Assembly (NCBI GenBank): GCA_040776945.1
Contig: JAXGZN010000002.1
Coordinates: 480,001 to 544,000, forward strand
From: Methanomassiliicoccaceae archaeon
GTDB lineage: Archaea; Thermoplasmatota; Thermoplasmata; Methanomassiliicoccales; Methanomassiliicoccaceae
Direction of reading: 5' to 3'
Length of the DNA: 64,000 bases
The notes below the pieces were generated by a model that was not told the origin of the DNA, ran no database searches, and saw only the letters and a program-made list of their open reading frames with translations. Of this stretch, positions 5,105 to 53,818 are shown piece by piece (within the stretch, counting starts at the first letter, position 1; every line of letters starts with the position of its first letter). The position numbers were made by a program, and so were the translations under genes.

Positions 5105-6028
5105 ATGAAGAAGGACGTCATTTCAGTGCTTGACCTACGTGCGGATATCTCAGATATCCTCGGCTCGGCCTTGGAGCTGAAGAAGAGGAACGACAAGAGC
5201 GGTCAGCAGCTGAAGGGCAGGACCCTAGGCATGATATTCGAGAAATCGAGCACCCGCACCCGCGTATCCTTCGAGGCAGGCATGCTGCAGCTGGGCGGCC
5301 ATACAATATATCTCAGTCAAAGGGATTCGCAGCTGGGGAGGGGAGAGACCATCGGGGACACCGCCAAGGTCCTTAGCCGGTACGTCGATGGGATCGTGTA
5401 CCGGGCGTTCAGCCACGCCAATATGCTGGAGCTCGCCCGTGCGGCAACAGTGCCGGTGATAAACGCTCTTGACGACCTCGAGCACCCTTGCCAGATCGCC
5501 GCCGACCTCATGACCATCATGGAGCGGAAGGGATCTTTCCAGGGTCTCAAGCTGGCTTACATCGGTGATGGGAACAACGTCTGCAATTCACTGTCCCTAG
5601 GGGCCGCGATCGTAGGTATGGACTTTATGGCCGCCACACCTCCGGAGCATAGGCCGGACCCAGGAGCGATCGCTTCCGCCAGATCGATCGCCGAAAAGAA
5701 CGGGGCGGTCAGCGAGGTGGTGACCTCTCCGCAGGAGGCCGCAAGGGGAGCGGACGTGATCTATACCGACACGTGGATATCCATGGGCCAGGAGGACGAG
5801 GGACGGGAGAAGATGCGTGCCCTCGCCCCATATCATGTGAGCCAAGAGCTGATGTCAATGGCCAACAAGGGAAGCATTTTCATGCACTGTCTGCCGGCCC
5901 ATCGAGGGTCGGAGGTCGCCGCAGAGGTGATCGACGGGCCGCAGAGCGTCGTATTTGACCAGGCGGAGAACAGGATGCATGCTCAGAAGGCTATCCTGAT
6001 CAAACTGATGGCCCCATCTGCGCGCTGA
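5105..6028 (+). CDS. argF: Ornithine carbamoyltransferase
   Basis: FEKSSTRTRVSF, HPCQ, FMHCLPAHRG, QAENRMH motifs. Confidence 0.97.
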   Translation: MKKDVISVLDLRADISDILGSALELKKRNDKSGQQLKGRTLGMIFEKSSTRTRVSFEAGMLQLGGHTIYLSQRDSQLGRGETIGDTAKVLSRYVDGIVYRAFSHANMLELARAATVPVINALDDLEHPCQIAADLMTIMERKGSFQGLKLAYIGDGNNVCNSLSLGAAIVGMDFMAATPPEHRPDPGAIASARSIAEKNGAVSEVVTSPQEAARGADVIYTDTWISMGQEDEGREKMRALAPYHVSQELMSMANKGSIFMHCLPAHRGSEVAAEVIDGPQSVVFDQAENRMHAQKAILIKLMAPSAR

Positions 6029-33659: not shown

Positions 33660-34087
33660 AGGTGTTCATGATCCCGCCCAACAGCCTTATCCTATACGAT
33701 CTGGTCGAACGCTTCGGCCACCAACCTCTCTCCCTGATGGGCGAGCTGCGCGACCATGTGGTGGAGCCGGAGGTGGAGTCCCCGCCCTTGAACCTTTCTC
33801 AGGACGACATCATGAGGGGGTTGAAGTACGCAGGGATAGAGGTCCCCTCCGGCATCCGGGGCCGCCTTGCCATCTGGGGCCCGATGGTCGATGAGGCGGA
33901 GGCGGCCATCATAATGCATGATATGCCCTACACCTTCGGCTGCGTGGGATGCCACCGTACCAACCTGATGCTCACCTACATGGTCAGGCGGAAGGGCATC
34001 CCGACGCTCGAGGTGCACTATCCTCATGATGACAATGAGGCCAAGGTCATGGTCTCCAAGATCAAGGCCTTCCTGGAGGGACTGTAA
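33656..34087 (+). CDS. mmp5: Methanogenesis marker protein 5
   Basis: [38 protein letters not shown]. Confidence 0.93.
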
Positions 34088-34088
34088 T

Positions 34089-35321
34089 ATGGCCATCAAG
34101 ATCGCACAGCTGTCCTGCGGGACGGAGTATTCTGGAATACAATCTGAGATCGACCACGCCGCCGACACCGTCGGAGGCAAGATGGTCTATCCGGACGTCG
34201 CGTTCGATGACATCAACCGCTCGGTCGAGGAGTTCGGCTTCGACCCCGCCTCTCCCCAGCTCCGCCTGATGATCGCTCGCGCCAAGGCGCTCGCCGACGG
34301 GCACTACGACGCGGACGCGGTGTTCATCGCCACCTGCTTCCGATGCGCGGAGGCGGCCCTGGTCAGGAACGAGGTTCGGAGGTACATACAGGACCACACC
34401 AAGCTGCCTGTGGTCACCTACTCGTTCACTGAGCGCCTGAAGGCCGCCCAATTGCTCACCCGCATGGAAGCCCTGGTCACCATAGTGGAGAAGAAGGAGC
34501 TTCTCGCCAGGGAACGCCAGGTAGGTCTTACCGCGGGCATCGATTCCGGGTCCTCGACCACCAAGGCCATGATCATGCGCGACAACGAGATCATCGGCAA
34601 GTATTGGACCCCCACCGGACCGGTTCTGGAGACCGGACTGGAGGTTTTCGAAAAGGCTCTGGAGGATGCGGGGGTGAAGCAGAGCGAACTGGAAGGCATC
34701 GGTGTCACCGGCTACGGGCGTTTCCTTATCGGCAAGAAGCTCGAGGCCAAGCTGGTGCAGGAGGAGCTGACGGTCAATAGCAAGGGTGCGGTCTGGCTCG
34801 CTGACCGGCAGAAGGGAGAGGCCACCATCATCGACATCGGAGGGATGGACAACAAGGCCATCACCGTGCGCGACGGCATCCCTGACAACTTCACCATGGG
34901 CGGCATCTGCGCCGGCGCGTCCGGCCGGTTCTTGGAAATGGTGACCAAGCGCCTTAGGGTCCCCATCGAGGACCTCGGCGCCCTCGCCGATAAGGGTGAC
35001 TGGCGAAAGGTGAACATGAACTCCTACTGCTCCGTCTTCGGCATCCAGGACCTGGTCACGTCGCTTGCAGCAGGCAACACCATCGAGGATGTCGCCGCGG
35101 CTGCCTGCCACTCCGTGGCCGAGCAGGTCTACATGCAGCAGCTGCAGGAGATCGACGTCCGCCAGCCGGTCATACAGGTGGGGGGAACGAGCCTGATCAG
35201 CGGACTGGTGCACGCGGTCGGAGAGATGGTCGGGTCTGCGCCCATCATACCAAAGAACTCCCAATTCATCGGAGCGGCCGGGGCGGCCCTGCTGGCCTCC
35301 GGCTTCCTCGAGGGGCTTTGA
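34089..35321 (+). CDS. mmp15: Methanogenesis marker protein 15 (ASKHA activase)
   Basis: [42 protein letters not shown]. Confidence 0.95.
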
Positions 35322-35887
35322 TGACCCTGACCGACGAGAGATTCGCTTACGAGAACTTCGAGTCGATCTTCCGACAGACGCTCCAGGACCTGGGCATCTC
35401 CAGGAGCGTGCTCGGTTTCAGGATAATCGCCAATCCTGGAGCCCCCTATTTCCTGATCTCCATCAGATTGGGACGGGCACGATCGGCCATTAAGGTATCG
35501 GACATGTCCCAGCTCAATCCGCACGCCGGCGGTACGGCCTTGACCATCATTGATGAGGGTTGGGCGCCTGCCTTGCTGAACAAGCTATGGCAGCGGTACG
35601 GACGCGATCGGGTGGAACAGATGACGAGGTTCGAGATGCTGGTCCGGGGAGTGAGCGTGGATGAGCTGTCGAACTTGGAACTTGACCCCGGAGAGGAGCT
35701 GAAGGCCAAGGTCCTGGACGCCGTCTGGAGGCTCTTCCCGGAGGGCTTCACCGTGCGCTACGAGATAGTGGACGAAAGGGCCATGACCATAATCGGCACG
35801 GAGCATGACATGAGGCCGGAATGGATCGATGTCGCGAGGATGGTACATAAGGAGATGAGCGCCAGGGAGGCAGATCCAGATGTATGA
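35321..35887 (+). CDS. mmp17: Methanogenesis marker protein 17
   Basis: Position between mmp15 and mmp7; LW..YG..V.Q..RF and PEGF.VR motifs. Confidence 0.85.
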   Translation: MTLTDERFAYENFESIFRQTLQDLGISRSVLGFRIIANPGAPYFLISIRLGRARSAIKVSDMSQLNPHAGGTALTIIDEGWAPALLNKLWQRYGRDRVEQMTRFEMLVRGVSVDELSNLELDPGEELKAKVLDAVWRLFPEGFTVRYEIVDERAMTIIGTEHDMRPEWIDVARMVHKEMSAREADPDV

Positions 35888-36812
35888 GGTGCTGATGTAT
35901 GACGGCGGCGTCTACCGCGTGAACGAGCTCTATGAGCTGGTCGAGGACGTCGGAGGGTTCGTCATCCAGAAGACCCAGATCCAGGTCCAGATACTGGTGA
36001 CGATGGCCATACCGGAGGAGGAGCGCCCGGTCATAGAGGCTAAGACCCGGGAGCTTGGCGGCAAGATCGTGCACGTACCGCTCGCCGGGACCGAGGTCGC
36101 GGTCGTCGCACCTACGCTGGGGCGTCATCATATGCCCCATCCAACCTGCGACATCGCCGAACAGCTGCGCAGGCTCGGAGCGATCACTGTTGTCATGGGC
36201 CTCGCTCGAGGGAAAGGACGAAGGACCTCCCAGATCAGCGCCGATGAGAAGGCGATCATCGAGGAGTACGATGCGGCCGTGTTCGTTCTGGGCAACTTCA
36301 AGGATTGCATCCTGGAGCACAAGGTCAAGCTGTTCGAGGAGATCGAGATCCCGGTGGTCGTGGTGTGCGGACCGCAGATGGACGACTTGCCGCACTGCGA
36401 GGCCATCGTATGCGGTGTCGGCCGAAAGGTCGAGAGGATGCGCAGAGAGGAGGAGATCGCCCGGCTGAACGAAGTATCGGTCGCCATCGAGAAGGTGGTC
36501 AAGGAAAGGCGCCGCTTCCTGGAGGAGGACCCCTTGTTCGTCCATCCCGCAGAGGTCAAGGACCGCATCGCCGAGCTCGAGCCGGTCGAGCGCAGCCTGC
36601 GGCCTGCGCCTGTGGTCCTGCACTTGGACGGCCTCAGGGTGAAGATCCCCTATAAAGAGTGGAAGGACCAGATCGCCGCGGTCGAGGTGTACGGGCACCG
36701 GCTGGGGGACATCGCAACGATATCCGACTCCCGTCTCGGGGGCAGCACCCTCATAAAGATCAAGACCCGCTCCGAGGTAGAGGACCACGACCGCCGCGCG
36801 AAAAAGGGATGA
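35880..36812 (+). CDS. mmp7: Methanogenesis marker protein 7
   Basis: GGVYR..E..ELVEDVGG, HHMPHPTCDIAE, GLARG.G, LDGLRVKIPY. Confidence 0.94.
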   Translation: MYEVLMYDGGVYRVNELYELVEDVGGFVIQKTQIQVQILVTMAIPEEERPVIEAKTRELGGKIVHVPLAGTEVAVVAPTLGRHHMPHPTCDIAEQLRRLGAITVVMGLARGKGRRTSQISADEKAIIEEYDAAVFVLGNFKDCILEHKVKLFEEIEIPVVVVCGPQMDDLPHCEAIVCGVGRKVERMRREEEIARLNEVSVAIEKVVKERRRFLEEDPLFVHPAEVKDRIAELEPVERSLRPAPVVLHLDGLRVKIPYKEWKDQIAAVEVYGHRLGDIATISDSRLGGSTLIKIKTRSEVEDHDRRAKKG

Positions 36813-39979: not shown

Positions 39980-42511
39980 TCACTTCCCGTATTTCCTTTT
40001 CACCTCTGGAGTGTACCTCCTCAGCAGCGCTGCGTTGCTGACCACCGATACCGAGCTCATGGCCATCGCCGCGGCGGCCACGATGGGATTGAGCAGCAGT
40101 CCAAAGAACGGATACAGCACCCCTGCGGCAATGGGGATGCCTGCGGAATTGTAACCGAGCGCCCAGAACAGGTTCTGGCGTATCTTGGTCAACGTCCTCT
40201 TGGAGAGCTGGATGGCGGCCACCGCATCGAGCAGGTCGCTTCGGATCAGAACTATGTCCCCGGTCTCCATGGCCACATCGGTACCGCTGCCTATGGCGAT
40301 GCCTACGTCCGCCTGCGCCAGAGCCGGCGCGTCGTTCACTCCGTCCCCTATCATGGCCACCCGTCTGCCCTCGGCCTGCAGCCTGGCAACTTCCTGTGCC
40401 TTGTTCTCCGGCAGGACTTCGGCGATGTAGCGGTCGATGCCCACCTGGGAGGCGATGACCTTTGCTGTCCGGGGGTTGTCCCCGGTCAGCATGAGCACAT
40501 CGATCCCCATCTCCTTTAGCTCGGAGACCGCCTCCTTGGACGTCTCCTTCACCACATCGGCAACGCCTATTATGCCTATGAGAGCGGGGCCCGAGGACAC
40601 CAGCATTGCGGTGCGGCCCTCCTCCTCCATGCGCTGCAGGTCGGTCTCCGCTACGGACATGGATATCCCGTTGGAATCCATCATCCTCCTGTTTCCTATG
40701 AGAACTGTCCGCCCGTCGACAACTGCCCTCACTCCCTGCCCGGGAACGGCCTCGAAGCTATCAGCATCAGGGACCGATACGCCGTCTCTCATGGCCCGGC
40801 GGACGATGGCCTCGGCCAGAGGATGCTCGGAGCTCTTCTCCACCGCGGCGGCGGTTCTCAGGACATCGGCCTCGGTGCCATCCAGGACCAAGATGTTGGT
40901 GACCTCCGGTTCTCCTTTGGTGATAGTGCCGGTCTTGTCCATGATCACCAACTGGACCTTGCCTGTGTTCTCCAGGGCCTCAGCGCTCTTGAACAGTATG
41001 CCGTTCTCGGCCCCCTTCCCTGAGCCGACCATGATTGCCGTCGGCGTGGCCAGGCCAAGCGCACAGGGACACGATATCACCAGGACAGAGATGAAAATGA
41101 TCAGTGAGAACACGAACCCCTCGTCCCCTCCCACGAGAACCCCGTAAGCGTAGAGATACCAGATGAAGAACGCCACTGTGGCGATGACTATGACCGCCGG
41201 CACGAACCATGCCGACACACTGTCGGCATACCTCTGTATGGGGGCCTTCGATGATTGGGCATCCTCCACCAGTCTGATTATCTGCGCCAAAGCGGTGTCC
41301 TTTCCCACCTTGGTGGCTCGGACCTTGAGGACCCCGTTCTTGTTGATGGAACCGCCGACCACAGGTGATCCCGAGGTCTTGTCGATCGGTATGGACTCAC
41401 CGGTGATCATGCTCTCGTCGACCGCGGAACTGCCATCCTCCACCGTTCCATCGGTAGCGATCTTCTCCCCAGGGCGAACGATGAACAGATCATCGACCTT
41501 CAGGAGCTCGACCGGGACCTCTATCTCGGCCCCGTCCCTGACGACCCTGGCGGTCCGGGCCTGTAGTCCCACTAGCTTGCGTATGGCCTGAGACGTCCGC
41601 CCCTTGGCCTTGGCCTCAAGGTATTTGCCGAACAATATCAGGGAGATGATCATGGCCGAGCTGTCGAAGTAGGTGTGATGATGGAAAGGTATCAGCGATG
41701 GGAAGAACACCACGGCCACTGAATAGAAGTACGCGGCCGATGAACCCATTGCGATCAAGGTATCCATGTTCGCGCGGCGGTTCTTCAGAGCGTAATAGGT
41801 GCCCAGGTAGAACTGGAAGCCTGCTATGAACTGAACCGGGGTGGCCATTATGAACAGCAGGAGGTTCTCGAACCCGGATATGCCCAGCGCCGCCCCCCAG
41901 CCGAAGAAGTCGAACCCGATCATGAGGACCATTATCGGAACGCTCAAGGCAAGGGAGAACACAAGAAGGGTCAACTGTCTCTTCTGTTCCTTCTCTCTTT
42001 CCGCCATCTCTGTGTCCAGAGTCTCGGACTCCAGCACCTCGTAGCCCGCGTTCACGATGGCGGCCTTAATCGCTTCGAGGGTCACCATCTCCGGGTTGAA
42101 TCGAACCATGGCCTTCTCCGTGGCCAGATTGACACTGGCGGAGAGGACGCCTTCCATTGCGGTCAATACATCCTCTATTATGCCGGCGCAGGAGGCGCAG
42201 ACCATGCCTTTGATCCCCAACGTGACCTGGTCCACCGCTACGTCGTAGCCTGCCTTCTGGACGGCGGCGGCGATCTTCGATGGATCGACCAGCGAAGGAT
42301 CGTATACCACCCGGGCCTTCTCAGTTGCCAGGTTGACCGGGGCCTCTATCACCCCTGGCAATTTCCCGATGGCATCCTCGACGGTACCAGCGCAGGATGC
42401 GCAGGTCATCCCGGTAACTCCCAATGTTATCGTCTTCGTCGTTCCCGGACCAGGCTTCGGGGGCGGCAAAGGGCAGACCTCATCATTGCACGGCTCGTTC
42501 ACGCCAAGCAA
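39980..42511 (-). CDS. copA: Cu+-transporting P1B-type ATPase
   Basis: Two GMxCASC HMA domains, TGES, CPCALGLA, DKTGT, GDGVND, YN..IP..G, MAMSS. Confidence 0.96.
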   Translation of the reverse strand: MLGVNEPCNDEVCPLPPPKPGPGTTKTITLGVTGMTCASCAGTVEDAIGKLPGVIEAPVNLATEKARVVYDPSLVDPSKIAAAVQKAGYDVAVDQVTLGIKGMVCASCAGIIEDVLTAMEGVLSASVNLATEKAMVRFNPEMVTLEAIKAAIVNAGYEVLESETLDTEMAEREKEQKRQLTLLVFSLALSVPIMVLMIGFDFFGWGAALGISGFENLLLFIMATPVQFIAGFQFYLGTYYALKNRRANMDTLIAMGSSAAYFYSVAVVFFPSLIPFHHHTYFDSSAMIISLILFGKYLEAKAKGRTSQAIRKLVGLQARTARVVRDGAEIEVPVELLKVDDLFIVRPGEKIATDGTVEDGSSAVDESMITGESIPIDKTSGSPVVGGSINKNGVLKVRATKVGKDTALAQIIRLVEDAQSSKAPIQRYADSVSAWFVPAVIVIATVAFFIWYLYAYGVLVGGDEGFVFSLIIFISVLVISCPCALGLATPTAIMVGSGKGAENGILFKSAEALENTGKVQLVIMDKTGTITKGEPEVTNILVLDGTEADVLRTAAAVEKSSEHPLAEAIVRRAMRDGVSVPDADSFEAVPGQGVRAVVDGRTVLIGNRRMMDSNGISMSVAETDLQRMEEEGRTAMLVSSGPALIGIIGVADVVKETSKEAVSELKEMGIDVLMLTGDNPRTAKVIASQVGIDRYIAEVLPENKAQEVARLQAEGRRVAMIGDGVNDAPALAQADVGIAIGSGTDVAMETGDIVLIRSDLLDAVAAIQLSKRTLTKIRQNLFWALGYNSAGIPIAAGVLYPFFGLLLNPIVAAAAMAMSSVSVVSNAALLRRYTPEVKRKYGK

Positions 42512-42643: not shown

Positions 42644-43234
42644 ATGATGGGATTGGATGAGAACGATTTGAACATCCTCAACGTTCTCCAGACCAATGGT
42701 CGACTATCCTATCGGCAGATATCCGAGAGGATCAGGATATCTGTTCCCACGGTGAGCAGCAAGATCGGCAACCTAGAGCGGATAGGCATCATCAGCGGTT
42801 ATCACGCCCGACTCGACCCTGAGAGGATGGGCGAGTTCAGCGCCATGGTGACGGTGAAGGCCCGCCCCTCGGAGCTGCCTGTGGTCATACGCCATTTTAA
42901 AAGTGATGACCAGGTGCGGCAGGTGTTCCTGCTGACCGGCGGTCGCCTTCTCCTCATATGCACATACGTGGATGTGCGAGCGCTGAACGAGTTTGCCTCC
43001 AAGCTAGCTTTGATCCCTGAGATATTGGACTATGACGTTGCTAACGTGATAGGCGTGGCCAAGGAGCTGCACAGAGCGGTCGTGGCCTCTGGGGCATCGC
43101 CGACCGCCAAGTGTGCCAATTGCGGGATCGAGATACGAGGGGGTGCCCTCCGCCTTAAGAAGGGTTCCTTGGTCCATCATCTATGTTCCGAAGGCTGCCT
43201 CGCCGCTTTCCGCGGCCGTCTGGGTAAATTATGA
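42644..43234 (+). CDS. Lrp/AsnC regulator with C-terminal TRASH metal-binding domain (CopR/CopT-like)
   Basis: N-terminal HTH; CANCG...HLCSEGC; divergent from copA. Confidence 0.85.
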   Translation: MMGLDENDLNILNVLQTNGRLSYRQISERIRISVPTVSSKIGNLERIGIISGYHARLDPERMGEFSAMVTVKARPSELPVVIRHFKSDDQVRQVFLLTGGRLLLICTYVDVRALNEFASKLALIPEILDYDVANVIGVAKELHRAVVASGASPTAKCANCGIEIRGGALRLKKGSLVHHLCSEGCLAAFRGRLGKL

Positions 43235-43290: not shown

Positions 43291-44055
43291 TCAGCGGTCG
43301 TCGGAGAGCCGGCTCTCAGGGGTCCCTAGGAGCAGATCGGGCAGCGACCTCACGCTGTCGATGAACACAGAACAGCCGGCCCTTATCCAATCATCGCGCC
43401 CGAAGGTGCCGCTCAGAACACCGATGAAGCCGGCCGAGACCGAGCGGGCGCAGCTGAGGTCCATCCCATGATCGCCAACCAAGACGCAATCTACGGCCTT
43501 GAGCCCCATCATGCCAGCGATCCTCTCCATCGCCTTGCCGTTCGGTTTTGCCTCCTCCTCAGGAAAATCGTCCCGGCAGATCATCGGAACCGTCATAAGG
43601 TCCAGACCAGCGTAGTGTATGGCGGCCTGGGCGTATGCACGGGACCCACGGGTCAGGATACCGATGGCGAGGCCTGCCCCCTCGATACTAGCGAGACAGT
43701 CCTCGGCACCTTCGATCGGAGTGGTGTCGGCAACGTGCTCTATCTCCGTCATGTTCATGATGTCGCTCATGGCCCGATGCAACTGCGGGACTTTTCCCCC
43801 TAGACCATTGGCCTTTAGATAGTTCACCGCTTTTGCGAGATCATCGGCGGTGGTCCTTCCGCCTTCAAGCTCTGATGCCGGGATGCCGTGGGCGATGAGC
43901 CCTCCAACGATCCGGAGCCTCATCAGGCCGAAGTTGACGGTGGAATTGATGAGCGTGCCGTCAAGATCGAACACGACGCCGCGGACGCGCCGACCGAGGT
44001 TGCGAGGAACGATCACGCTGTCCTCATCACCCTCCGGATATTTAGTGAGGTCCAT
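43291..44055 (-). CDS. HAD family hydrolase
   Basis: FDLDGTL, LTRG, KP, VGD...D motifs. Confidence 0.9.
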   Translation of the reverse strand: MDLTKYPEGDEDSVIVPRNLGRRVRGVVFDLDGTLINSTVNFGLMRLRIVGGLIAHGIPASELEGGRTTADDLAKAVNYLKANGLGGKVPQLHRAMSDIMNMTEIEHVADTTPIEGAEDCLASIEGAGLAIGILTRGSRAYAQAAIHYAGLDLMTVPMICRDDFPEEEAKPNGKAMERIAGMMGLKAVDCVLVGDHGMDLSCARSVSAGFIGVLSGTFGRDDWIRAGCSVFIDSVRSLPDLLLGTPESRLSDDR

Positions 44056-44212
44056 GCATGCTCATTATCAATAGAAATAATAGCAGGCCAGATGGCTATC
44101 TGCAAGGCGTCATTACCAGTTTTGATATTTAAAGGTATTCGGAGCATGCTCAACTACCTCTTTTATATTTCAAAAACCAAAACGGTCTAAAAAGGAAGAC
44201 CGGTGAGGAAAG

Positions 44213-44434
44213 ATGAAAGCAAGAACAATGACCCTGATTGGATTCGTAGCGCTCTTATTGGCCGCGTTCGGCACGGTCGCAGTGGTAGCTGACGTGGCCT
44301 CGGTGAACCTCATCATTCCAGGAATAGACCCGCACATCATCCCGGGCATCGATCCTCATATCATCCCCGGTATCGATCCGCACATCATTCCAGGAATAGA
44401 CCCGCACATCATCCCGGGCATCGATCCTCATTAA
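44213..44434 (+). CDS. Secreted-type propeptide with 5x IIPGIDPH repeats
   Basis: GGTGAGG SD, basic N-terminus plus hydrophobic stretch, repeats differing only at synonymous sites, own terminator. Confidence 0.85.
   Translation: MKARTMTLIGFVALLLAAFGTVAVVADVASVNLIIPGIDPHIIPGIDPHIIPGIDPHIIPGIDPHIIPGIDPH
44312..44431 (+). repeat. Five tandem 24-bp units encoding IIPGIDPH
   Basis: Unit1=unit4 and unit2=unit5 at DNA level; units 1, 2 and 3 differ only at codon third positions. Confidence 0.97.
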
Positions 44435-44438
44435 GCTC

Positions 44439-44480
44439 ATTGCCTCTTGCCCCCCTCGAGGCAATATATTTTTTATTTTT
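44439..44480 (+). terminator. Terminator between the convergent peptide and TPR genes
   Basis: ATTGCCTC...GAGGCAAT stem followed by TTTTTTATTTT. Confidence 0.7.
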
Positions 44481-44481
44481 C

Positions 44482-47172
44482 TCAGGCCAGGCTAGCAAGG
44501 GCCTGCTCGACCTCTTTTTTTAGATTCTCCGCAGACCCATGCGTAGTGAGCTGCAACGCCTCCTGAAGCAGACCGCTTGCGCCCTCTTTATCGCCGTTCT
44601 TTATGAACTGCTGGGCTATCTCATACAGCCAGCGCCCCAGAAGTAGGGGCGCGTCTTGCCTTCTGATGGTTTCCAAGGCATCGGTGAACTCGGCCTTGGC
44701 CCACTCCCACTCCATTCTCTTGTTGAAAATATAGCCGCGCATCAGGTGCAGGTCCGCCAACAGAACATTGTTCCCGAGCTTCTCGAATATCTTGCTCGCT
44801 TGGTTGATATGCTCTTGAGCCTGTTCCAGCATGTCGATCTCCACATACACGACCACAGCGTTCCTGAGCGCATATCCTTGCAGCTCCAGGTTCCCGGAGG
44901 TGCGGCCCATTTCAGCCGCCCGCTCGTGATATTTGACCGCCTCAGAATAGTTGTGCACCTCTGCCAGGCTTGTACCAAGACCGATGCATATCTTGGCGAT
45001 ATTGTCTACATCCCCTGTCCTTTCTATGACCTCCAGCGCCTCCTTTTTATATTTGATGGCCTGGTGATGGTCGATCAATGACGAGTACACGCGCCCGATG
45101 CCATACAAGGCCAATCCCAGACCGATATCGTCCATAGCGCTTTGTGCAAGTTCCATAGAACGGCGGAAGGCAACCATTGCATCTTGGTGGCGGCCTCGGT
45201 TCTGCAGAACCCCTCCCAGGTCGTAATAGGTCTCCACCAGTGCGTGAGGGTCTTTCACGTCCTCCGCCAACCCAAGGCTCCGCTTGAGATATTCCTCGGC
45301 CTTATCGAACACCGAGCGCCTAAGGTAGATAGCGCCAAGCCTGCGGTTGACCTCAGCTAGCAGTCTGCGGTCCGTTTGCGGATCGCTCAGGCCTATGATC
45401 TCCTCGAACCTGGTTATCGCCTGGTCCCACTCTCCGCGAACCTCTAGGACATCGCCCTCGAGGAGAAGAAGCTCCATCTTCTCACTTCGATCGATGTTAT
45501 CGCACTGTGCCCTAAGAGATGTGAGGAGAGGTGCGAACGGAAGGCTGTAGCCCTTGGATATGATGTCCCGGCCGCTGCCTGCCGCGATCCGCACCGCGGT
45601 GCTGTACTCCTTGGCCATCAAGCAATGGTACAACGCCTCCACGTGCGCTGGAGCGGAATTATCCAAGAGGTAATACCTGGACGCTGCCTTGTGATAGGTA
45701 ACGCGCTGCCGCGGAGAAAGCCGGGAGTAGAAGAAGTCGCGCAGCAGGTCATGCATCCCGATCATGCGACCTAAGGACTCATGCATCAGCGATTTGGAAA
45801 GGAGTGAATCTATGGTATCATAGTCGACGAGGTAGTCCTTGTACTCCATCTCCTTCTGGAAAAGACCAAGGTCTTTGGCGATCTCTTCCTCCATGGTGAA
45901 GAAAGCGTCAACGAGCACCGGATAGCGGAACACCGAGGCGATGTCCATTATCCTGCGCTCGGTTATGTCGAGCTTGGAATATACCTCCTGCTCAATGAAC
46001 ATGCGGACGTTCTTTCCCAGAGCGCTCTGCGGACCGTCCACCAGCTCCAAAAAGAGAGGATGCCCTCGGGTGGCCCGGTATATGTCCATCAGCTCGTGCT
46101 CGGGCAGTTCGCGATTCCGCATGAGGCGTAGAGAGCTCTCAACATCCAGGCCCTCCAGCATCATCTCCTTGACCTGCCCCTTGAAGACGGCCGCACGCGA
46201 GTAGAACGAGGGGATCTCACGACTTGTGCAGATCAAAGAGACGTCAGAGATGGACTCAAGAACGATCACCATTGCGGACAGGAACTCTTGCACCGTCCTG
46301 TCCCCTTTCTGAACATCGTCGATGATGAACACCGTTGGCAGGTCCTGGAGGTCCATCTCCAAGATCCCGCATACCTCTCCTACCGCCGGGCTGTCCGTCC
46401 TAGAAAGATATCGCTCAAGCCCCTTCTTGCCGAGCTGCGAAAGGAATTCCGCGATCGGCGTGAGAAGGATCTTTAGGTTCACCCATTCATGGACCCGATA
46501 CCAGTATACGTGCCTCTGTTCCCTTATGTCCTGGACGAACTTCGCGAGGAGAGTGGTCTTCCCGATCCCCGGGATGCCGCAGACGGCCATTATGCTCGCC
46601 GTATCAGAGTTGAGAAAGTCGATAAGTTCGGCCATCTCTTTCTGCCTTCCATAGAAGCTGCGGACCGTTGGCTTGCGATCGGTGTAATCCACGAACCTCC
46701 GCTCCTGCTTAACTTTCCCCTCGTGGAAAGAAGAGCAGTCAAAGCTCCCCCTCGACACGCTGATCGCGAGGTCGAGGAAGGCATATCTCTTCGGCAGATA
46801 CAGGGACAGCTTGCCCAGCTCGTCCTCATGCACCTTGCCATCAAAATCGATAATGTTGATCTTGGTGCGTTCGATCTCGAGCTTGAGATTGAGGGCGTTC
46901 TGATAGCCGCTGGGAGTTAGGAAGTAGACCTTTTTTACACTGGCGAACCCCTTGACATGTCTGGTGTGGACCTCGACCACGCCTTCCCCTTCCATGCTAT
47001 TTACGATCTTGGAGACATTGTTCCGTCCGACATCGACAGCCTCAGCTATCCCTTCCTGGGTAACGGTCGCCGGAGCGTCAGGATCTTGCTGATACCTCTG
47101 GTATGCCAGGAGGTGCAGGATGACCCTCTCACGCACGGTAAGCAGGGACTTCCTGGAGGAGCGGTTCACCAA
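44482..47172 (-). CDS. Winged-HTH + STAND/NB-ARC-like NTPase + TPR protein
   Basis: N-terminal TQEGIAEAV...NVSK HTH; FYGR..E, GIPGIGKTT Walker A, IIDD Walker B, GHPL; multiple TPR-like helical repeats. Confidence 0.88.
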   Translation of the reverse strand: MVNRSSRKSLLTVRERVILHLLAYQRYQQDPDAPATVTQEGIAEAVDVGRNNVSKIVNSMEGEGVVEVHTRHVKGFASVKKVYFLTPSGYQNALNLKLEIERTKINIIDFDGKVHEDELGKLSLYLPKRYAFLDLAISVSRGSFDCSSFHEGKVKQERRFVDYTDRKPTVRSFYGRQKEMAELIDFLNSDTASIMAVCGIPGIGKTTLLAKFVQDIREQRHVYWYRVHEWVNLKILLTPIAEFLSQLGKKGLERYLSRTDSPAVGEVCGILEMDLQDLPTVFIIDDVQKGDRTVQEFLSAMVIVLESISDVSLICTSREIPSFYSRAAVFKGQVKEMMLEGLDVESSLRLMRNRELPEHELMDIYRATRGHPLFLELVDGPQSALGKNVRMFIEQEVYSKLDITERRIMDIASVFRYPVLVDAFFTMEEEIAKDLGLFQKEMEYKDYLVDYDTIDSLLSKSLMHESLGRMIGMHDLLRDFFYSRLSPRQRVTYHKAASRYYLLDNSAPAHVEALYHCLMAKEYSTAVRIAAGSGRDIISKGYSLPFAPLLTSLRAQCDNIDRSEKMELLLLEGDVLEVRGEWDQAITRFEEIIGLSDPQTDRRLLAEVNRRLGAIYLRRSVFDKAEEYLKRSLGLAEDVKDPHALVETYYDLGGVLQNRGRHQDAMVAFRRSMELAQSAMDDIGLGLALYGIGRVYSSLIDHHQAIKYKKEALEVIERTGDVDNIAKICIGLGTSLAEVHNYSEAVKYHERAAEMGRTSGNLELQGYALRNAVVVYVEIDMLEQAQEHINQASKIFEKLGNNVLLADLHLMRGYIFNKRMEWEWAKAEFTDALETIRRQDAPLLLGRWLYEIAQQFIKNGDKEGASGLLQEALQLTTHGSAENLKKEVEQALASLA

Positions 47173-47294
47173 GCCAGAATGAGGATATTAGGAATAAAAT
47201 GTTTCTAATAAATTCAGCAAAAAAAGAGCATGCTCAAAATCGTATTATATACGCACAAGGAGAAAATAGGTATGAAGAATACAAGGTGATCGGA

Positions 47295-47843
47295 ATGAAC
47301 AACGGTTCCAAGATATCCCTGCTCCTTGAGGACTATCCTCGGAATGGCTATCACATATACTCCAAGATCGTTGGTCGCTCCACCAGCGGCCTCTGCATTT
47401 CCCGCCTGCATCCCGAATACGTGGGCCAGAAGTACGGCCTGGAGATGTCCAAAAGATACTGGCTAAGCGGCCAGAGCGGCGTTGACGTGATCTCCCCTAA
47501 GTCCCTTAACCACCTCCTCAAAGTGATCCGCCAGGAGCTTAGGGGCAGATCGGGAGGAACAATATTCCTCGACGGACTGGAATATCTTCTTCTATTCCAC
47601 GATATGAACAGGATACTTGGCATCCTAGAGCAGATCGATTCCCTCCTCAGGGAGGCCAAGGTGGAGCTCATCGTGGCTATGGACCCCCTGACCTTCGAGC
47701 AGAAGGACCTCGATACGCTTTATGCGGCCTTCCCTCACTCTTCCAGTGAAGAGATGATGGCAAGGCTGTCTGCCCAGGGCCCCTCGGCCATGGCCTCGAC
47801 CAGAGCGGTGTCCGCACCTCCCAGGGCCAGTCTGCGGGTCTGA
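47295..47843 (+). CDS. DUF835 domain protein
   Basis: GLCISRLHP, YWLS, IFLDGLEYLL, MDP; divergent from the STAND gene. Confidence 0.85.
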   Translation: MNNGSKISLLLEDYPRNGYHIYSKIVGRSTSGLCISRLHPEYVGQKYGLEMSKRYWLSGQSGVDVISPKSLNHLLKVIRQELRGRSGGTIFLDGLEYLLLFHDMNRILGILEQIDSLLREAKVELIVAMDPLTFEQKDLDTLYAAFPHSSSEEMMARLSAQGPSAMASTRAVSAPPRASLRV

Positions 47844-47955: not shown

Positions 47956-48510
47956 TCAGATGCATTCACTAGGGGTCACGATCTCGGCGAAGCGCCTGAG
48001 GCGGGCAACATATCGCGGGTCCATGGACAATGGGTCCAGAGGGACGAGCATGAGGGCTCTCGAGGCCATGATCCCATCGTTCACCTGTTCAAGGAACATC
48101 TGCACTTTGGTGGGGTCGTTGAACAAGGTCAAATACTCCACGCCCTCAAGGAGCACGACCGCGTTCCTCTTGCCCATTAAGAACGTCGAGACACGCTGCG
48201 ATATCCTGTGAAGCTGGTTCGGCGGAATGTTGGCAGCACCCGGCCGCTCGCTCAGCCAAGCGCATTCCAGCGATACTCCGGGCATCTGCTCTTGAAGCAG
48301 ATCTGGGTGCAGGCGGGTGACACACAGTGCCTTTGAGCCGGAAAAGACGAAATCCTGCAATATCCTCAGCGTCCTCTCCATCTTCTTCTCGCAAACGAAA
48401 TATATCCTTCCGAAATCAAAAAGGAAATCCTCTCCGGCGCTCAAGCTCACAAGGTCGGCACTCAATGTGTTGCCTCTCTGAGGAATCGGCACGGACGAAT
48501 TCACTTCCAC
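47956..48510 (-). CDS. DUF835 domain protein
   Basis: ALCVTRLHP, WLS, LLEGVEYL..FN, LDP. Confidence 0.85.
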   Translation of the reverse strand: MEVNSSVPIPQRGNTLSADLVSLSAGEDFLFDFGRIYFVCEKKMERTLRILQDFVFSGSKALCVTRLHPDLLQEQMPGVSLECAWLSERPGAANIPPNQLHRISQRVSTFLMGKRNAVVLLEGVEYLTLFNDPTKVQMFLEQVNDGIMASRALMLVPLDPLSMDPRYVARLRRFAEIVTPSECI

Positions 48511-53078: not shown

Positions 53079-53552
53079 CTAGGCGTAACTGGACACGACC
53101 TCGTCGGATATGTGCTCGAGCATCTCAAGCTTCTGAGGATAATGATTGCGGGGGTCCAGACTTATTATCAAGTTGCTGCCATCCTCATTGACCTTGCCGG
53201 TGGCCCTTGCCAGAACGTTGAGCACAGGCCGGAACCCGTTCCACATCTCCAGCACATCCAGGCCGTTCAATACAATGATCCCATCTTTGTTATCCTTCAG
53301 GAAGGTATTGATGTACTTCTCGAACGCCTGAAGGTTCATCGGCGGTATGCATTCTGGATTGGGCCTCGTGCTGAGCCACATGGTCTCCAGCATATGCTCA
53401 TCAAAGTCCAACTGGCTTCTCAGCAGGCGCGGCGGATTCTTTGAGATATAGAGAGCCTTTCGGCCTTTGTCCAACTCCTTCCTCAGGACCTGATGGGTCC
53501 TCAACGGCACGCGCTCCTCGAACAGGTAGAACTTCCCCTTCGATAGTTTCAT
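53079..53552 (-). CDS. DUF835 domain protein
   Basis: LYISKNPP, WLS, VLNGLDVL...NGF, SLDP; GGAGGG SD. Confidence 0.82.
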   Translation of the reverse strand: MKLSKGKFYLFEERVPLRTHQVLRKELDKGRKALYISKNPPRLLRSQLDFDEHMLETMWLSTRPNPECIPPMNLQAFEKYINTFLKDNKDGIIVLNGLDVLEMWNGFRPVLNVLARATGKVNEDGSNLIISLDPRNHYPQKLEMLEHISDEVVSSYA

Positions 53553-53818
53553 CTTATGCCCTCCTTTTCCGAACCAATTCCATGAGAGCTTGTGAATATT
53601 AGTCTGTTGCCCGTTGGTGATTATCAAAAAGTGATAATAACGCCGCAAAAAAAGCGTACTTTTGGTAATTAATGATGTACACATTCTTACTGGATAGTTA
53701 GAAATTCATGACGGAGGTTATATTACTTGATGCTATTGATAATGATAATATACTGGGATCATAGGAAATACTGGATGGACCAGTGAAGAAAGAGCAGAAA
53801 AAAAATGGACGGAAAATG

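Follow-up and report, generated by a model that had tools for sequence, protein, structure and literature searches.

An octapeptide gene paired with a STAND-type regulator: a candidate peptide-receptor cassette in Methanomassiliicoccales

What is the function of a small archaeal gene that encodes the same eight residues five times in succession, and on what does its product act? The question is raised by an open reading frame (ORF) of 73 codons (44213..44434, plus strand) in a Methanomassiliicoccaceae archaeon (assembly GCA_040776945.1). It lies in a stretch of 64,000 nucleotides from contig JAXGZN010000002.1 (positions 480,001 to 544,000), which is referred to here as the window. The predicted pre-pro-peptide starts with MKARTM and ends with five tandem 24-nt units (44312..44431, plus strand), each translated to IIPGIDPH. 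These units are in frame, form the C-terminal 40 residues and are followed by TAA immediately after the final histidine. Tandem Repeats Finder reported the array at 44311-44427 with a period of 24, 4.9 copies and a score of 136. Three distinct nucleotide versions of the unit occur in the order A-B-C-A-B; the last two units repeat the first two exactly and produce a 48-nt exact direct repeat with 72-nt spacing. Comparison of the codons showed that all seven variable sites are third codon positions and synonymous, for which random placement within codons gives p ~ (1/3)^7 = 5e-4. In a set of 16 orthologous arrays, position 3 accounts for 101 of the 109 sites that vary within an array, so this codon pattern is not due to chance. 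At three loci (L015, L019, L020; loci, genomes and matched proteins are given by the designations L, G and P) all units differ in DNA, eight of eight third positions are variable and the peptide is identical. The codon pattern indicates that the octapeptide units are under strong purifying selection at the peptide level. The unit order, the restriction of differences to third positions and the constraint on the peptide had been noted in an original prediction made from the window alone, and all were borne out. The same holds for recent copy-number expansion, as the ABCAB pattern here and the ABABAB pattern in L016, L017, L021 and L070 imply recent block duplications on top of purifying selection, and between 1 and 13 units are found among the genomes. 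Dibasic or Gly-Gly sites between the units, reported as absent, were not found in the translation either.

The sequence of the array, though not its copy number, is supported by read data. All of its k-mers were recovered without differences from two independent DNA runs, in which the short-read unitigs end at the borders of the array and none of them spans it. A 49-amino-acid form (P0006) carries two units behind an identical N-terminal part, which is what would be expected from collapse or deletion between exact duplicates. An ORF on the minus strand that overlaps the array (44255-44464) was rejected as a gene, because its translation changes from unit to unit and that of the plus frame is invariant. 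Preceding the units, the N-terminal 33 residues (44213..44311, plus strand) consist of a basic start (K2, R4), about 21 hydrophobic residues and an Ala/Ser/Val stretch. The 19-residue Kyte-Doolittle maximum is 2.61 and the pattern is conserved in the homologue alignment. This part probably represents a Sec-type signal peptide, which would be cleaved, or a signal anchor with the N-terminus inside; an n-region and an h-region can clearly be recognized, and the length of the latter also fits an anchor.

No family match was obtained for the 73-amino-acid peptide in Pfam and NCBIfam, and the best feature scores in the ESM Atlas (0.76-0.81) all belonged to bacterial hypothetical clusters and were at chance level by the statistics of the tool. 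A word-indexed search returned 13 related proteins, and a profile search of 1.84 billion representatives gave 171 matches at E values up to 1e-3. From these, 26 short and three long matches were read, most of the long ones being left unread. All 26 short matches show the family architecture (P0143 weakly), and the three long ones (P0018, P0038, P0047) were rejected as unrelated low-complexity repeats. A related-locus search with a seven-row alignment found eight named loci, all from Methanomassiliicoccus or metagenome-assembled genomes of Methanomassiliicoccales. The distribution was then assessed in 201 genomes of this order, including 114 of family f7 and four of genus g3. The peptide profile matches 54 of them, with none in f7 and none in g3. 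The peptide family appears to be previously undescribed; among the seven families that were sampled from the order, it is conserved in six.

Within this family the octapeptide occurs in very different settings. Many members contain directly abutting units, with variants such as IIPGLEPH, TIPLIDPH, TIPVLDPH, AIPFIDPH, SIPFLDPH, NIPGVDPH and IIPSIDPH beside the IIPGIDPH found here. Others carry units separated by unrelated spacers of about 4-20 residues (L025, L027, L029-L031, L050, L061-L064), for example GIPGNDPH-KIMSGSNL-GIPGNDPH-..., VIPGNSPH... and MIPHIDPH.... A lone C-terminal unit is present in L048 (...IPGIPPH) and L081. Genus g22 (L043-L045, L051-L053, L066, L085) has a conserved hydrophilic leader of 18-20 amino acids, MKVKSTVNYHNVRSRGKN or similar with the consensus M-K/R-x-K-S-T-x-N-Y-x-N-x-R..., and no hydrophobic segment; its units read MPLPGVGPH(N), PLPGVGPYNA, MPLPGVGPV and MTLPGVGPW-EASN. 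At L047:5886-6320 (G008) four tandem cistrons of 114 nt were found, each with a strong Shine-Dalgarno site, an 8-codon ORF encoding MFGSIGPH and a GC hairpin, and the same mini-ORF occurs beside a masked stretch in L046 near 5800-5835 (G003). In L047 these cistrons replace the polyprotein gene, and such short genes repeated as separate cistrons are unusual in themselves.

Most family members stop right at the final unit, and the remaining ones end in a stub of 3-5 residues that resembles the start of a next unit (AISI, AISF, AVSL, SVF), so a product with a defined C-terminus fits. The last residue is histidine in most lineages and Tyr (L045), Val (L051), Trp (L066) or Ile (L076) in others; the aspartate position can be occupied by Glu, Ser, Gly or Pro in individual lineages. 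In this chromosomal slot, the conserved entity is the octapeptide and not the architecture of the gene. The functional product is predicted to be a peptide of about eight residues with a defined C-terminus and the form hydrophobic-I/L-P-x-x-(D/E/S/G)-P-(H or another bulky residue), and polyprotein forms would be cut after each unit. The release of an octapeptide by cleavage near Pro-His, as first proposed, gains strength from the spaced, single-copy and 8-codon forms, with the cut itself a predicted step. Even if the signalling model developed below is wrong, the family stands out strikingly for its conservation at the peptide level, because one octapeptide is encoded by polyprotein genes, in spaced copies or by separate genes of 8 codons. 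Separately, frameshifts inside the array, which then continues in another frame, were seen at L022:9674-10144 (G042, a one-contig genome), L053 and L085. In G042 the adjacent regulator gene is intact, in G110 it is split and in G132 stop codons interrupt it. These frameshifts could be real decay, slippage variants or assembly errors.

The gene that faces the array offers a candidate target for the peptide. It encodes a protein of 896 amino acids (44482..47172, minus strand), is convergent to the peptide gene and is separated from it by 47 bp between the stop codons. According to Pfam (HTH, AAA_16, ATPase_2, NB-ARC and TPR families), the protein consists of a winged helix-turn-helix domain (wHTH; residues 15-80), an NTPase module of the STAND type (signal transduction ATPases having numerous domains; AAA_16/ATPase_2/NB-ARC, 173-376), an arm and a tetratricopeptide repeat (TPR) sensor (557-810). 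Its Walker A motif is GIPGIGKT, and the residues G199, G202, I203, G204, K205, T206, G370, H371 and P372 are invariant in an alignment of 24 regulator sequences. Only two windows exceed a hydrophobicity of 1.6 (maximum 1.91) and no long hydrophobic run is present. MalT, a representative of this architecture, senses maltotriose. The best solved relative is PH0952 of Pyrococcus horikoshii (PDB 6mfv; PMC6468293), with an E value of 4.6e-42 over the nucleotide-binding oligomerization domain (NOD). Like the PH0952/MalT-type proteins, the regulator combines a winged helix, a NOD with Walker A, an arm and a TPR sensor in the same order and carries the GxP motif. It is predicted to be a transcription factor of this type, and the expected common mechanism is ligand-triggered release of autoinhibition followed by multimerisation. 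The MalT and PH0952 passages of the PH0952 study (PMC6468293) name no inducer for PH0952, and the word 'peptide' is absent from its main text. As far as could be seen, a genetically linked peptide candidate is new for the PH0952-type clade.

The TPR sensor is the fastest-evolving domain of the regulator, with a mean pairwise identity of 45% and 4% invariant columns, compared to 58-66% and 14-22% for the other domains (58% identity for the wHTH). A conserved wHTH and palindrome combined with a divergent TPR region are what would be expected if the DNA site is fixed while the ligand drifts. Complex prediction for regulator residues 400-896 (24-row alignment) with repeat residues 34-73 gave a score of 0.00 in two runs, which counts neither way. 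Two further observations concern the regulator itself. In L047, L048, L049 and L053, and in G008, G011, G060, G108, G110, G112 and G118, the STAND gene consists of two adjacent pieces, which break near residue 405-475 or 570-685 (at the NOD/arm or arm/TPR boundary) and may be genuine split genes. Its Walker A motif (46555-46578 in the window) shares IPGI or PGxG with IIPGIDPH and with the LPGVGPH of g22. As speculation only, this resemblance of the peptide to the P-loop, which in PH0952 contacts the GxP motif (GHP here), may be coincidence or mimicry.

The pairing of the two genes is the main lead at this locus, together with a promoter palindrome common to the flanking genes, and both had been missed by the original prediction. 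Regulator orthologues match 68 of the 201 genomes, with none in f7 and g3. At 60 of 61 fetched STAND-orthologue loci the peptide gene is present in the same slot, convergent to the 3' end of the STAND gene. In the exception (L049) the STAND gene is in two pieces and the DUF835 gene is missing. Across six families the pair is embedded in a syntenic block of FAD oxidase, copA, an Lrp regulator with a TRASH-like region, a haloacid dehalogenase (HAD) family hydrolase, peptide, STAND, two DUF835 proteins, a TrpB-like protein and ribonucleotide reductase. Where the block is rearranged, the pair is kept: there is no Lrp gene in L023 and L032-L034 and no copA close by in L024, and an epimerase gene is inserted between the HAD and peptide genes in L025, L030 and L031. 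In these rearranged loci the distance between the peptide gene and the 3' end of STAND remains 40-120 bp. At a single locus (L017:10554-11576, G004) the two genes are separated, by an insertion sequence element with a 341-amino-acid transposase-like ORF. Losses point in the same direction. In genus g3 (L055, L056) copA, Lrp, HAD and the TrpB-like gene are kept and peptide, STAND and both DUF835 genes are gone; G014 is without peptide, STAND and one DUF835, and G026 without peptide and STAND. Both partners are damaged in G110 (STAND split, array broken over frames) and G132 (STAND with stop codons, array likewise broken), for which assembly errors could be an alternative explanation. These natural rearrangements and deletions single out the peptide and STAND genes as a pair.

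The second element that connects these genes is a perfect 10-bp palindrome, GAGCATGCTC, at the peptide promoter (44142..44151, both strands), which is a candidate operator. It is followed by the putative TATA box TTTTATAT of the peptide gene (44161..44168, plus strand), whose promoter role is suggested by its position and conservation. The same layout, GAGCATGCTC, then 9 nt (AA and seven variable bases), then TATA, precedes each of the peptide genes. Beyond the palindrome, on its other side, a TATA-like box, GATATTTAAA in plus-strand reading (44124..44133, minus strand), faces the HAD gene. Its spacing is conserved in the upstream sequences and it forms a minus-strand copy of the palindrome and TATA pattern with two mismatches, so that it is probably a divergent promoter. 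A second GAGCATGCTC palindrome (47226..47235) with the TATA sequence TTATATA (47245-47251) lies between the divergent STAND and DUF835 genes. The corresponding 25-nt pattern AGCATGCTCAA-N7-TTWWATA (44143-44167 at the peptide promoter) has just two exact copies in the genome (2.17 Mb in two contigs), both flanking STAND. It occurs in 66 of the 201 genomes, in none of f7 (0/114) and g3 (0/4), usually as two copies that are 3.0-3.3 kb apart and flank STAND; a reversed control pattern gave no matches in the 201 genomes. Of the 66 motif-bearing genomes 63 are STAND-positive, and the motif is present in three of 133 STAND-negative genomes, namely G026 (before DUF835), G027 (at a contig end) and G055 (66% complete). 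Five STAND-positive genomes (G060, G080, G094, G096 and G100) are without an exact motif. The three of them that were checked have one-base variants at the peptide promoter (G094, G096 and G100, at L070, L076 and L050).

Evidence for expression was obtained from two metatranscriptome assemblies. Both contain a 102-nt unitig of the array (44330-44431) without differences, with k-mer depths of 275 and 1523, compared to 3-13 for flanking-gene contigs of the same libraries. In the two DNA runs the depth of the array unitig was 4.4-11.4 compared to about 4-7 for the flanks. This suggests that the array is strongly transcribed, with the reservation that the contigs are strandless, lack ends and carry one depth figure each, and that DNA carry-over was not controlled.

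Given the observed constraint on translation, conservation, synteny, joint loss, shared motif and co-distribution of motif and regulator, the reading that we favour is that the octapeptide of the multi-copy pro-peptide is the cognate inducer of the neighbouring wHTH-STAND-TPR regulator. This is held tentatively, at slightly less than an even chance, and the estimate is a joint one that also covers the ORF being a real, translated gene for a multi-copy pro-peptide. According to this model, transcription would start from the TATA promoter that abuts the GAGCATGCTC palindrome. In most lineages the precursor would be inserted or exported via its hydrophobic N-terminus, and the repeats would be cut after Pro-His to single units. 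The peptide would then enter the cytoplasm, by re-import or directly where it is leaderless, and bind to the TPR sensor. Autoinhibition would be released and ATP-dependent multimerisation would follow, as in other STAND proteins, and the wHTH would act on the two palindrome promoters on either side of the regulator gene, that of peptide/HAD and that of DUF835/STAND. The result would be an autoinducing loop with the inactivated-KaiC-like DUF835 protein as the probable physiological output. Several of these steps agree with general experience, as short peptides are commonly bound by TPR domains and STAND regulators are switched through ligand binding to the sensor domain. The leaderless forms in g22, G003 and G008 imply that the peptide can be made in the cytoplasm, which fits a cytoplasmic receptor. 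For the other forms, an oligopeptide-type solute-binding protein (PF00496) is encoded in 49 of the 54 peptide-positive genomes.

In its mode of action, such a cassette would come closest to RRNPP signalling in Firmicutes and their phages (Rap-Phr, NprR-NprX, PlcR-PapR, PrgX, Rgg-SHP, AimR-AimP), without being a member of this family. In both cases a small gene for a secreted or leaderless pro-peptide adjoins the gene of a cytoplasmic TPR-type receptor, mostly with an N-terminal HTH. The adjacency that characterizes RRNPP systems was found here at 60 of 61 loci, and the genes are lost together. In RRNPP systems the C-terminal part of the precursor gives rise to the mature signal, a short linear peptide, as is predicted here; re-import by oligopeptide permease is available, and autoregulation is plausible. 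The differences are that the receptor carries the STAND NTPase module (residues 173-376) between HTH and TPR, which RRNPP receptors lack, that the precursor contains up to 13 signal copies and that the host is an archaeon. E values of 5e-9 to 2.5e-8 between the regulator and RapF or RapJ occur amid dozens of unrelated TPR proteins and probably reflect generic TPR similarity. The precursor also resembles the polyprotein precursors of pheromones and neuropeptides (yeast alpha-factor, FMRFamide-type) and multi-core ribosomally synthesized and post-translationally modified peptides (RiPPs; cyanobactins, dikaritins), in which an export signal is followed by identical peptide copies whose number varies by species. 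Those precursors contain dibasic or defined recognition sites and have known processing or modifying enzymes. In contrast, the units described here abut directly, with the junction Pro-His|x-Ile, for which we know of no processing enzyme.

To our knowledge, peptide-based cell signalling is established in Firmicutes, their phages and eukaryotes and not in archaea. No paper was found when the motif strings IIPGIDPH, IPGIDPH, PGIDPH and IPFLDPH were searched as text. No archaeal system was among the matches listed for RRNPP in archaea, judged by titles and the beginnings of abstracts, and no such system among those listed for quorum sensing and signaling peptides in archaea or methanogens. It is possible, with the balance lying somewhat against it, that the locus represents the first ribosomally encoded peptide-signalling system (pheromone or quorum-sensing-like) in Archaea, autoregulated via the GAGCATGCTC operator and with an inactivated-KaiC-like output. 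If this is true, the first inducer would be named for the archaeal PH0952-type STAND clade. With an octapeptide that can be synthesized, a soluble regulator and a palindrome of 10 bp, the locus makes up a triplet of ligand, receptor and operator that is open to direct tests, and the methanogens that carry it are of relevance for digesters and soils.

Several points weigh against this interpretation. Adjacency alone is weak evidence, because the synteny block is wide and extends from the FAD oxidase to ribonucleotide reductase. The co-distribution of peptide and STAND is phylogenetically confounded, as f7 is a single clade and genome reduction removes many genes at once. The distribution of PF00496 is nearly the same as that of peptide and STAND (1/114 in f7) and tracks the split between large and small genomes. 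No repeat-peptide ORF was detected at 14 loci of distant STAND homologues elsewhere in the phylum (24-31% identity), in a scan for ORFs under 260 amino acids with a 5-mer repeated three or more times, which single-copy peptides would escape. The pairing therefore is not general to the regulator family and appears to be specific to this orthologue group. The palindrome before DUF835 persists in G026, which is STAND-negative, and a third exact copy of the motif is present elsewhere in 12 other genomes, with a one-mismatch copy in the genome studied here. Because of these third copies, control by the palindrome-binding factor may extend beyond the cassette, and this factor need not be the STAND protein. 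A re-import step would be needed, because the receptor is cytoplasmic and most precursors look exported. The nearby genes encode no processing protease or exporter, and we know of no obvious enzyme that cleaves after histidine. The hydrophobic segment of about 21 residues may be a permanent membrane anchor. Finally, the RNA contigs, whose depths are crude, leave 44005-44329 uncovered, a region that comprises the promoter and the signal-peptide half of the ORF, though such a gap proves nothing in itself.

The possible anchor leads to the best of the competing explanations, an exported or membrane-anchored extracellular repeat protein whose Pro/Gly-rich, turn-forming units act as a whole, for example as a spacer at the surface, as an adhesive or matrix component or as a tethered ligand, with the STAND protein as its controller or a mere neighbour. 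The hydrophobic N-terminus is of anchor length and is preceded by basic residues, which by the positive-inside rule predicts an N-in, C-out orientation. Arrays of up to 13 units with frequent changes in copy number are typical of surface repeats, and the array is apparently highly represented in the RNA libraries. However, the precursors of g22 and of G003 and G008 have no hydrophobic segment, a periodic structure is not conserved in the spaced, single-copy and 8-codon forms, and loss of the peptide is strictly coupled to loss of a cytoplasmic sensor-regulator. We consider a surface protein unlikely, yet worth keeping in view beside the inducer model.

The hydrophilic, conserved leader of g22 and the multi-copy cores behind a leader would suit a multi-core precursor of a RiPP, of a cyclised peptide or of a peptide-derived small molecule or cofactor, with maturation enzymes encoded elsewhere. 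The defined C-terminal residue fits as well, and the 8-codon stand-alone ORFs recall the 7-codon microcin C gene. Against this, no gene for a radical-SAM enzyme, cyclodehydratase, prolyl-oligopeptidase, ATP-grasp or E1-like enzyme, protease or ABC exporter was found in the conserved neighbourhood, unlinked enzymes not having been searched, so that the genetic linkage by which RiPP precursors are recognized is missing. The sole RiPP-related match is a sub-threshold TPR similarity (39.8 bits compared to a cut-off of 1125), and most leaders resemble ordinary export signals. The suggestion that the array encodes a RiPP-like or cyclic octapeptide found no support in this neighbourhood, and such a product is regarded as improbable.

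Still less probable is a cis-acting device, in which the translation or transcription of the array would matter by itself, through ribosome pausing on the Pro-rich units or antisense transcription into STAND. The convergent orientation with 47 bp between the stops, the two prolines in each unit and the Shine-Dalgarno site and hairpin of each mini-ORF in L047 could be explained in this way. They are opposed by the hairpin and T-run that lie between the two genes, by the lack of a downstream gene in the same direction and by the constraint on all residues of the unit, even in spaced and single-copy forms and at unit counts of 1-13. Least credible of all is an extracellular copper or nickel buffer made of His/Asp metal-binding repeats and belonging to the adjacent copper-resistance genes: each unit does hold one His and one Asp, and copA and an Lrp regulator with a weak zf-FCS match lie 1-1.7 kb upstream, with copA syntenic in most loci. 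However, the histidine is not invariant (Tyr, Val, Trp or Ile in L045, L051, L066 and L076), and entire lineages have Ser, Gly or Pro in place of Asp. Genomes without the peptide retain copA, Lrp and HAD, the peptide is kept at loci where Lrp or copA is not its neighbour, and its loss is independent of both. In addition, the copA-Lrp regions that were fetched, for which no separate search was made, showed no palindrome.

The remaining features of the locus are as follows. A short hairpin is located in the 5' leader of the peptide gene (44183..44202, plus strand), where the terminator scan recorded a terminator-like stem on the minus strand. It is followed by a Shine-Dalgarno-like GGTGAGG before the ATG (44202-44208, plus strand). 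Between the convergent genes, a hairpin with a T-run (44447..44481; stem 44447-44464, then TATATTTTTT) is a likely shared terminator. The HAD-family hydrolase gene (43291..44055, minus strand) is divergent from the peptide gene, shares the palindrome region and is kept where peptide and STAND are lost. On the other side of STAND, the first DUF835 gene (47295..47843, plus strand, ATG at 47295; PF05763) encodes a soluble, inactivated-KaiC-like protein with no hydrophobic segment. It is followed by a second paralogue (47956..48510, minus strand), which is syntenic in relatives. In the domain table of PMC5847659, DUF835 is given as an inactivated KaiC (iKaiC) and as an output domain of archaeal response regulators. 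Three DUF835 paralogues occur within 6.5 kb (47295-47843, 47956-48510 and 53079-53684), and the palindrome promoter is present only at the first. At six loci within the order that encode paralogous STAND proteins (about 23% identity), no palindrome was seen, and reading of the listed ORFs, without a repeat scan, brought no repeat-peptide gene to notice. At two or more of these loci (at least L102 and L103), a secreted protein of about 510 amino acids is encoded upstream.

In 10 of the 12 genomes with a third motif copy (all except L097 and L100), and likewise in the genome studied here, this copy is situated upstream of a conserved element of about 90 nt, which lies ahead of an adenylate-kinase/Fap7-like gene. 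The respective positions are G000:C1 about 659100-659220, outside the window, and L089-L096, L098, L099 and L101. The element has the form ...GGAGAAGGNCC...CGGGG... and includes a GC hairpin and a T-run. A search of the third-copy loci against Rfam gave no match at the gathering threshold and, at a permissive setting, a chance-level match to a CRISPR direct repeat (E 0.17). This element may represent a small RNA or a leader, so far undescribed, that is controlled in the same way. Upstream of the cassette, copA was found as originally reported and encodes a P-type ATPase with two HMA domains (39980-42511, minus strand). It is accompanied by an Lrp/AsnC-type regulator with a Cys-rich, TRASH-like zinc-finger region at its C-terminus (42644-43234), for which the zf-FCS match is weak (E 4.5e-4, 20.4 bits, below the Pfam cut-off of 22.4). 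An Lrp regulator next to copA is presumably the arrangement of the archaeal copper-responsive CopR-CopA pair. This arrangement is independent of the peptide cassette. Further upstream (34026-36812), the window encodes a BadF/BcrA-type ATPase and a homologue of methyl-coenzyme M reductase operon protein C, which fits a methanogen.

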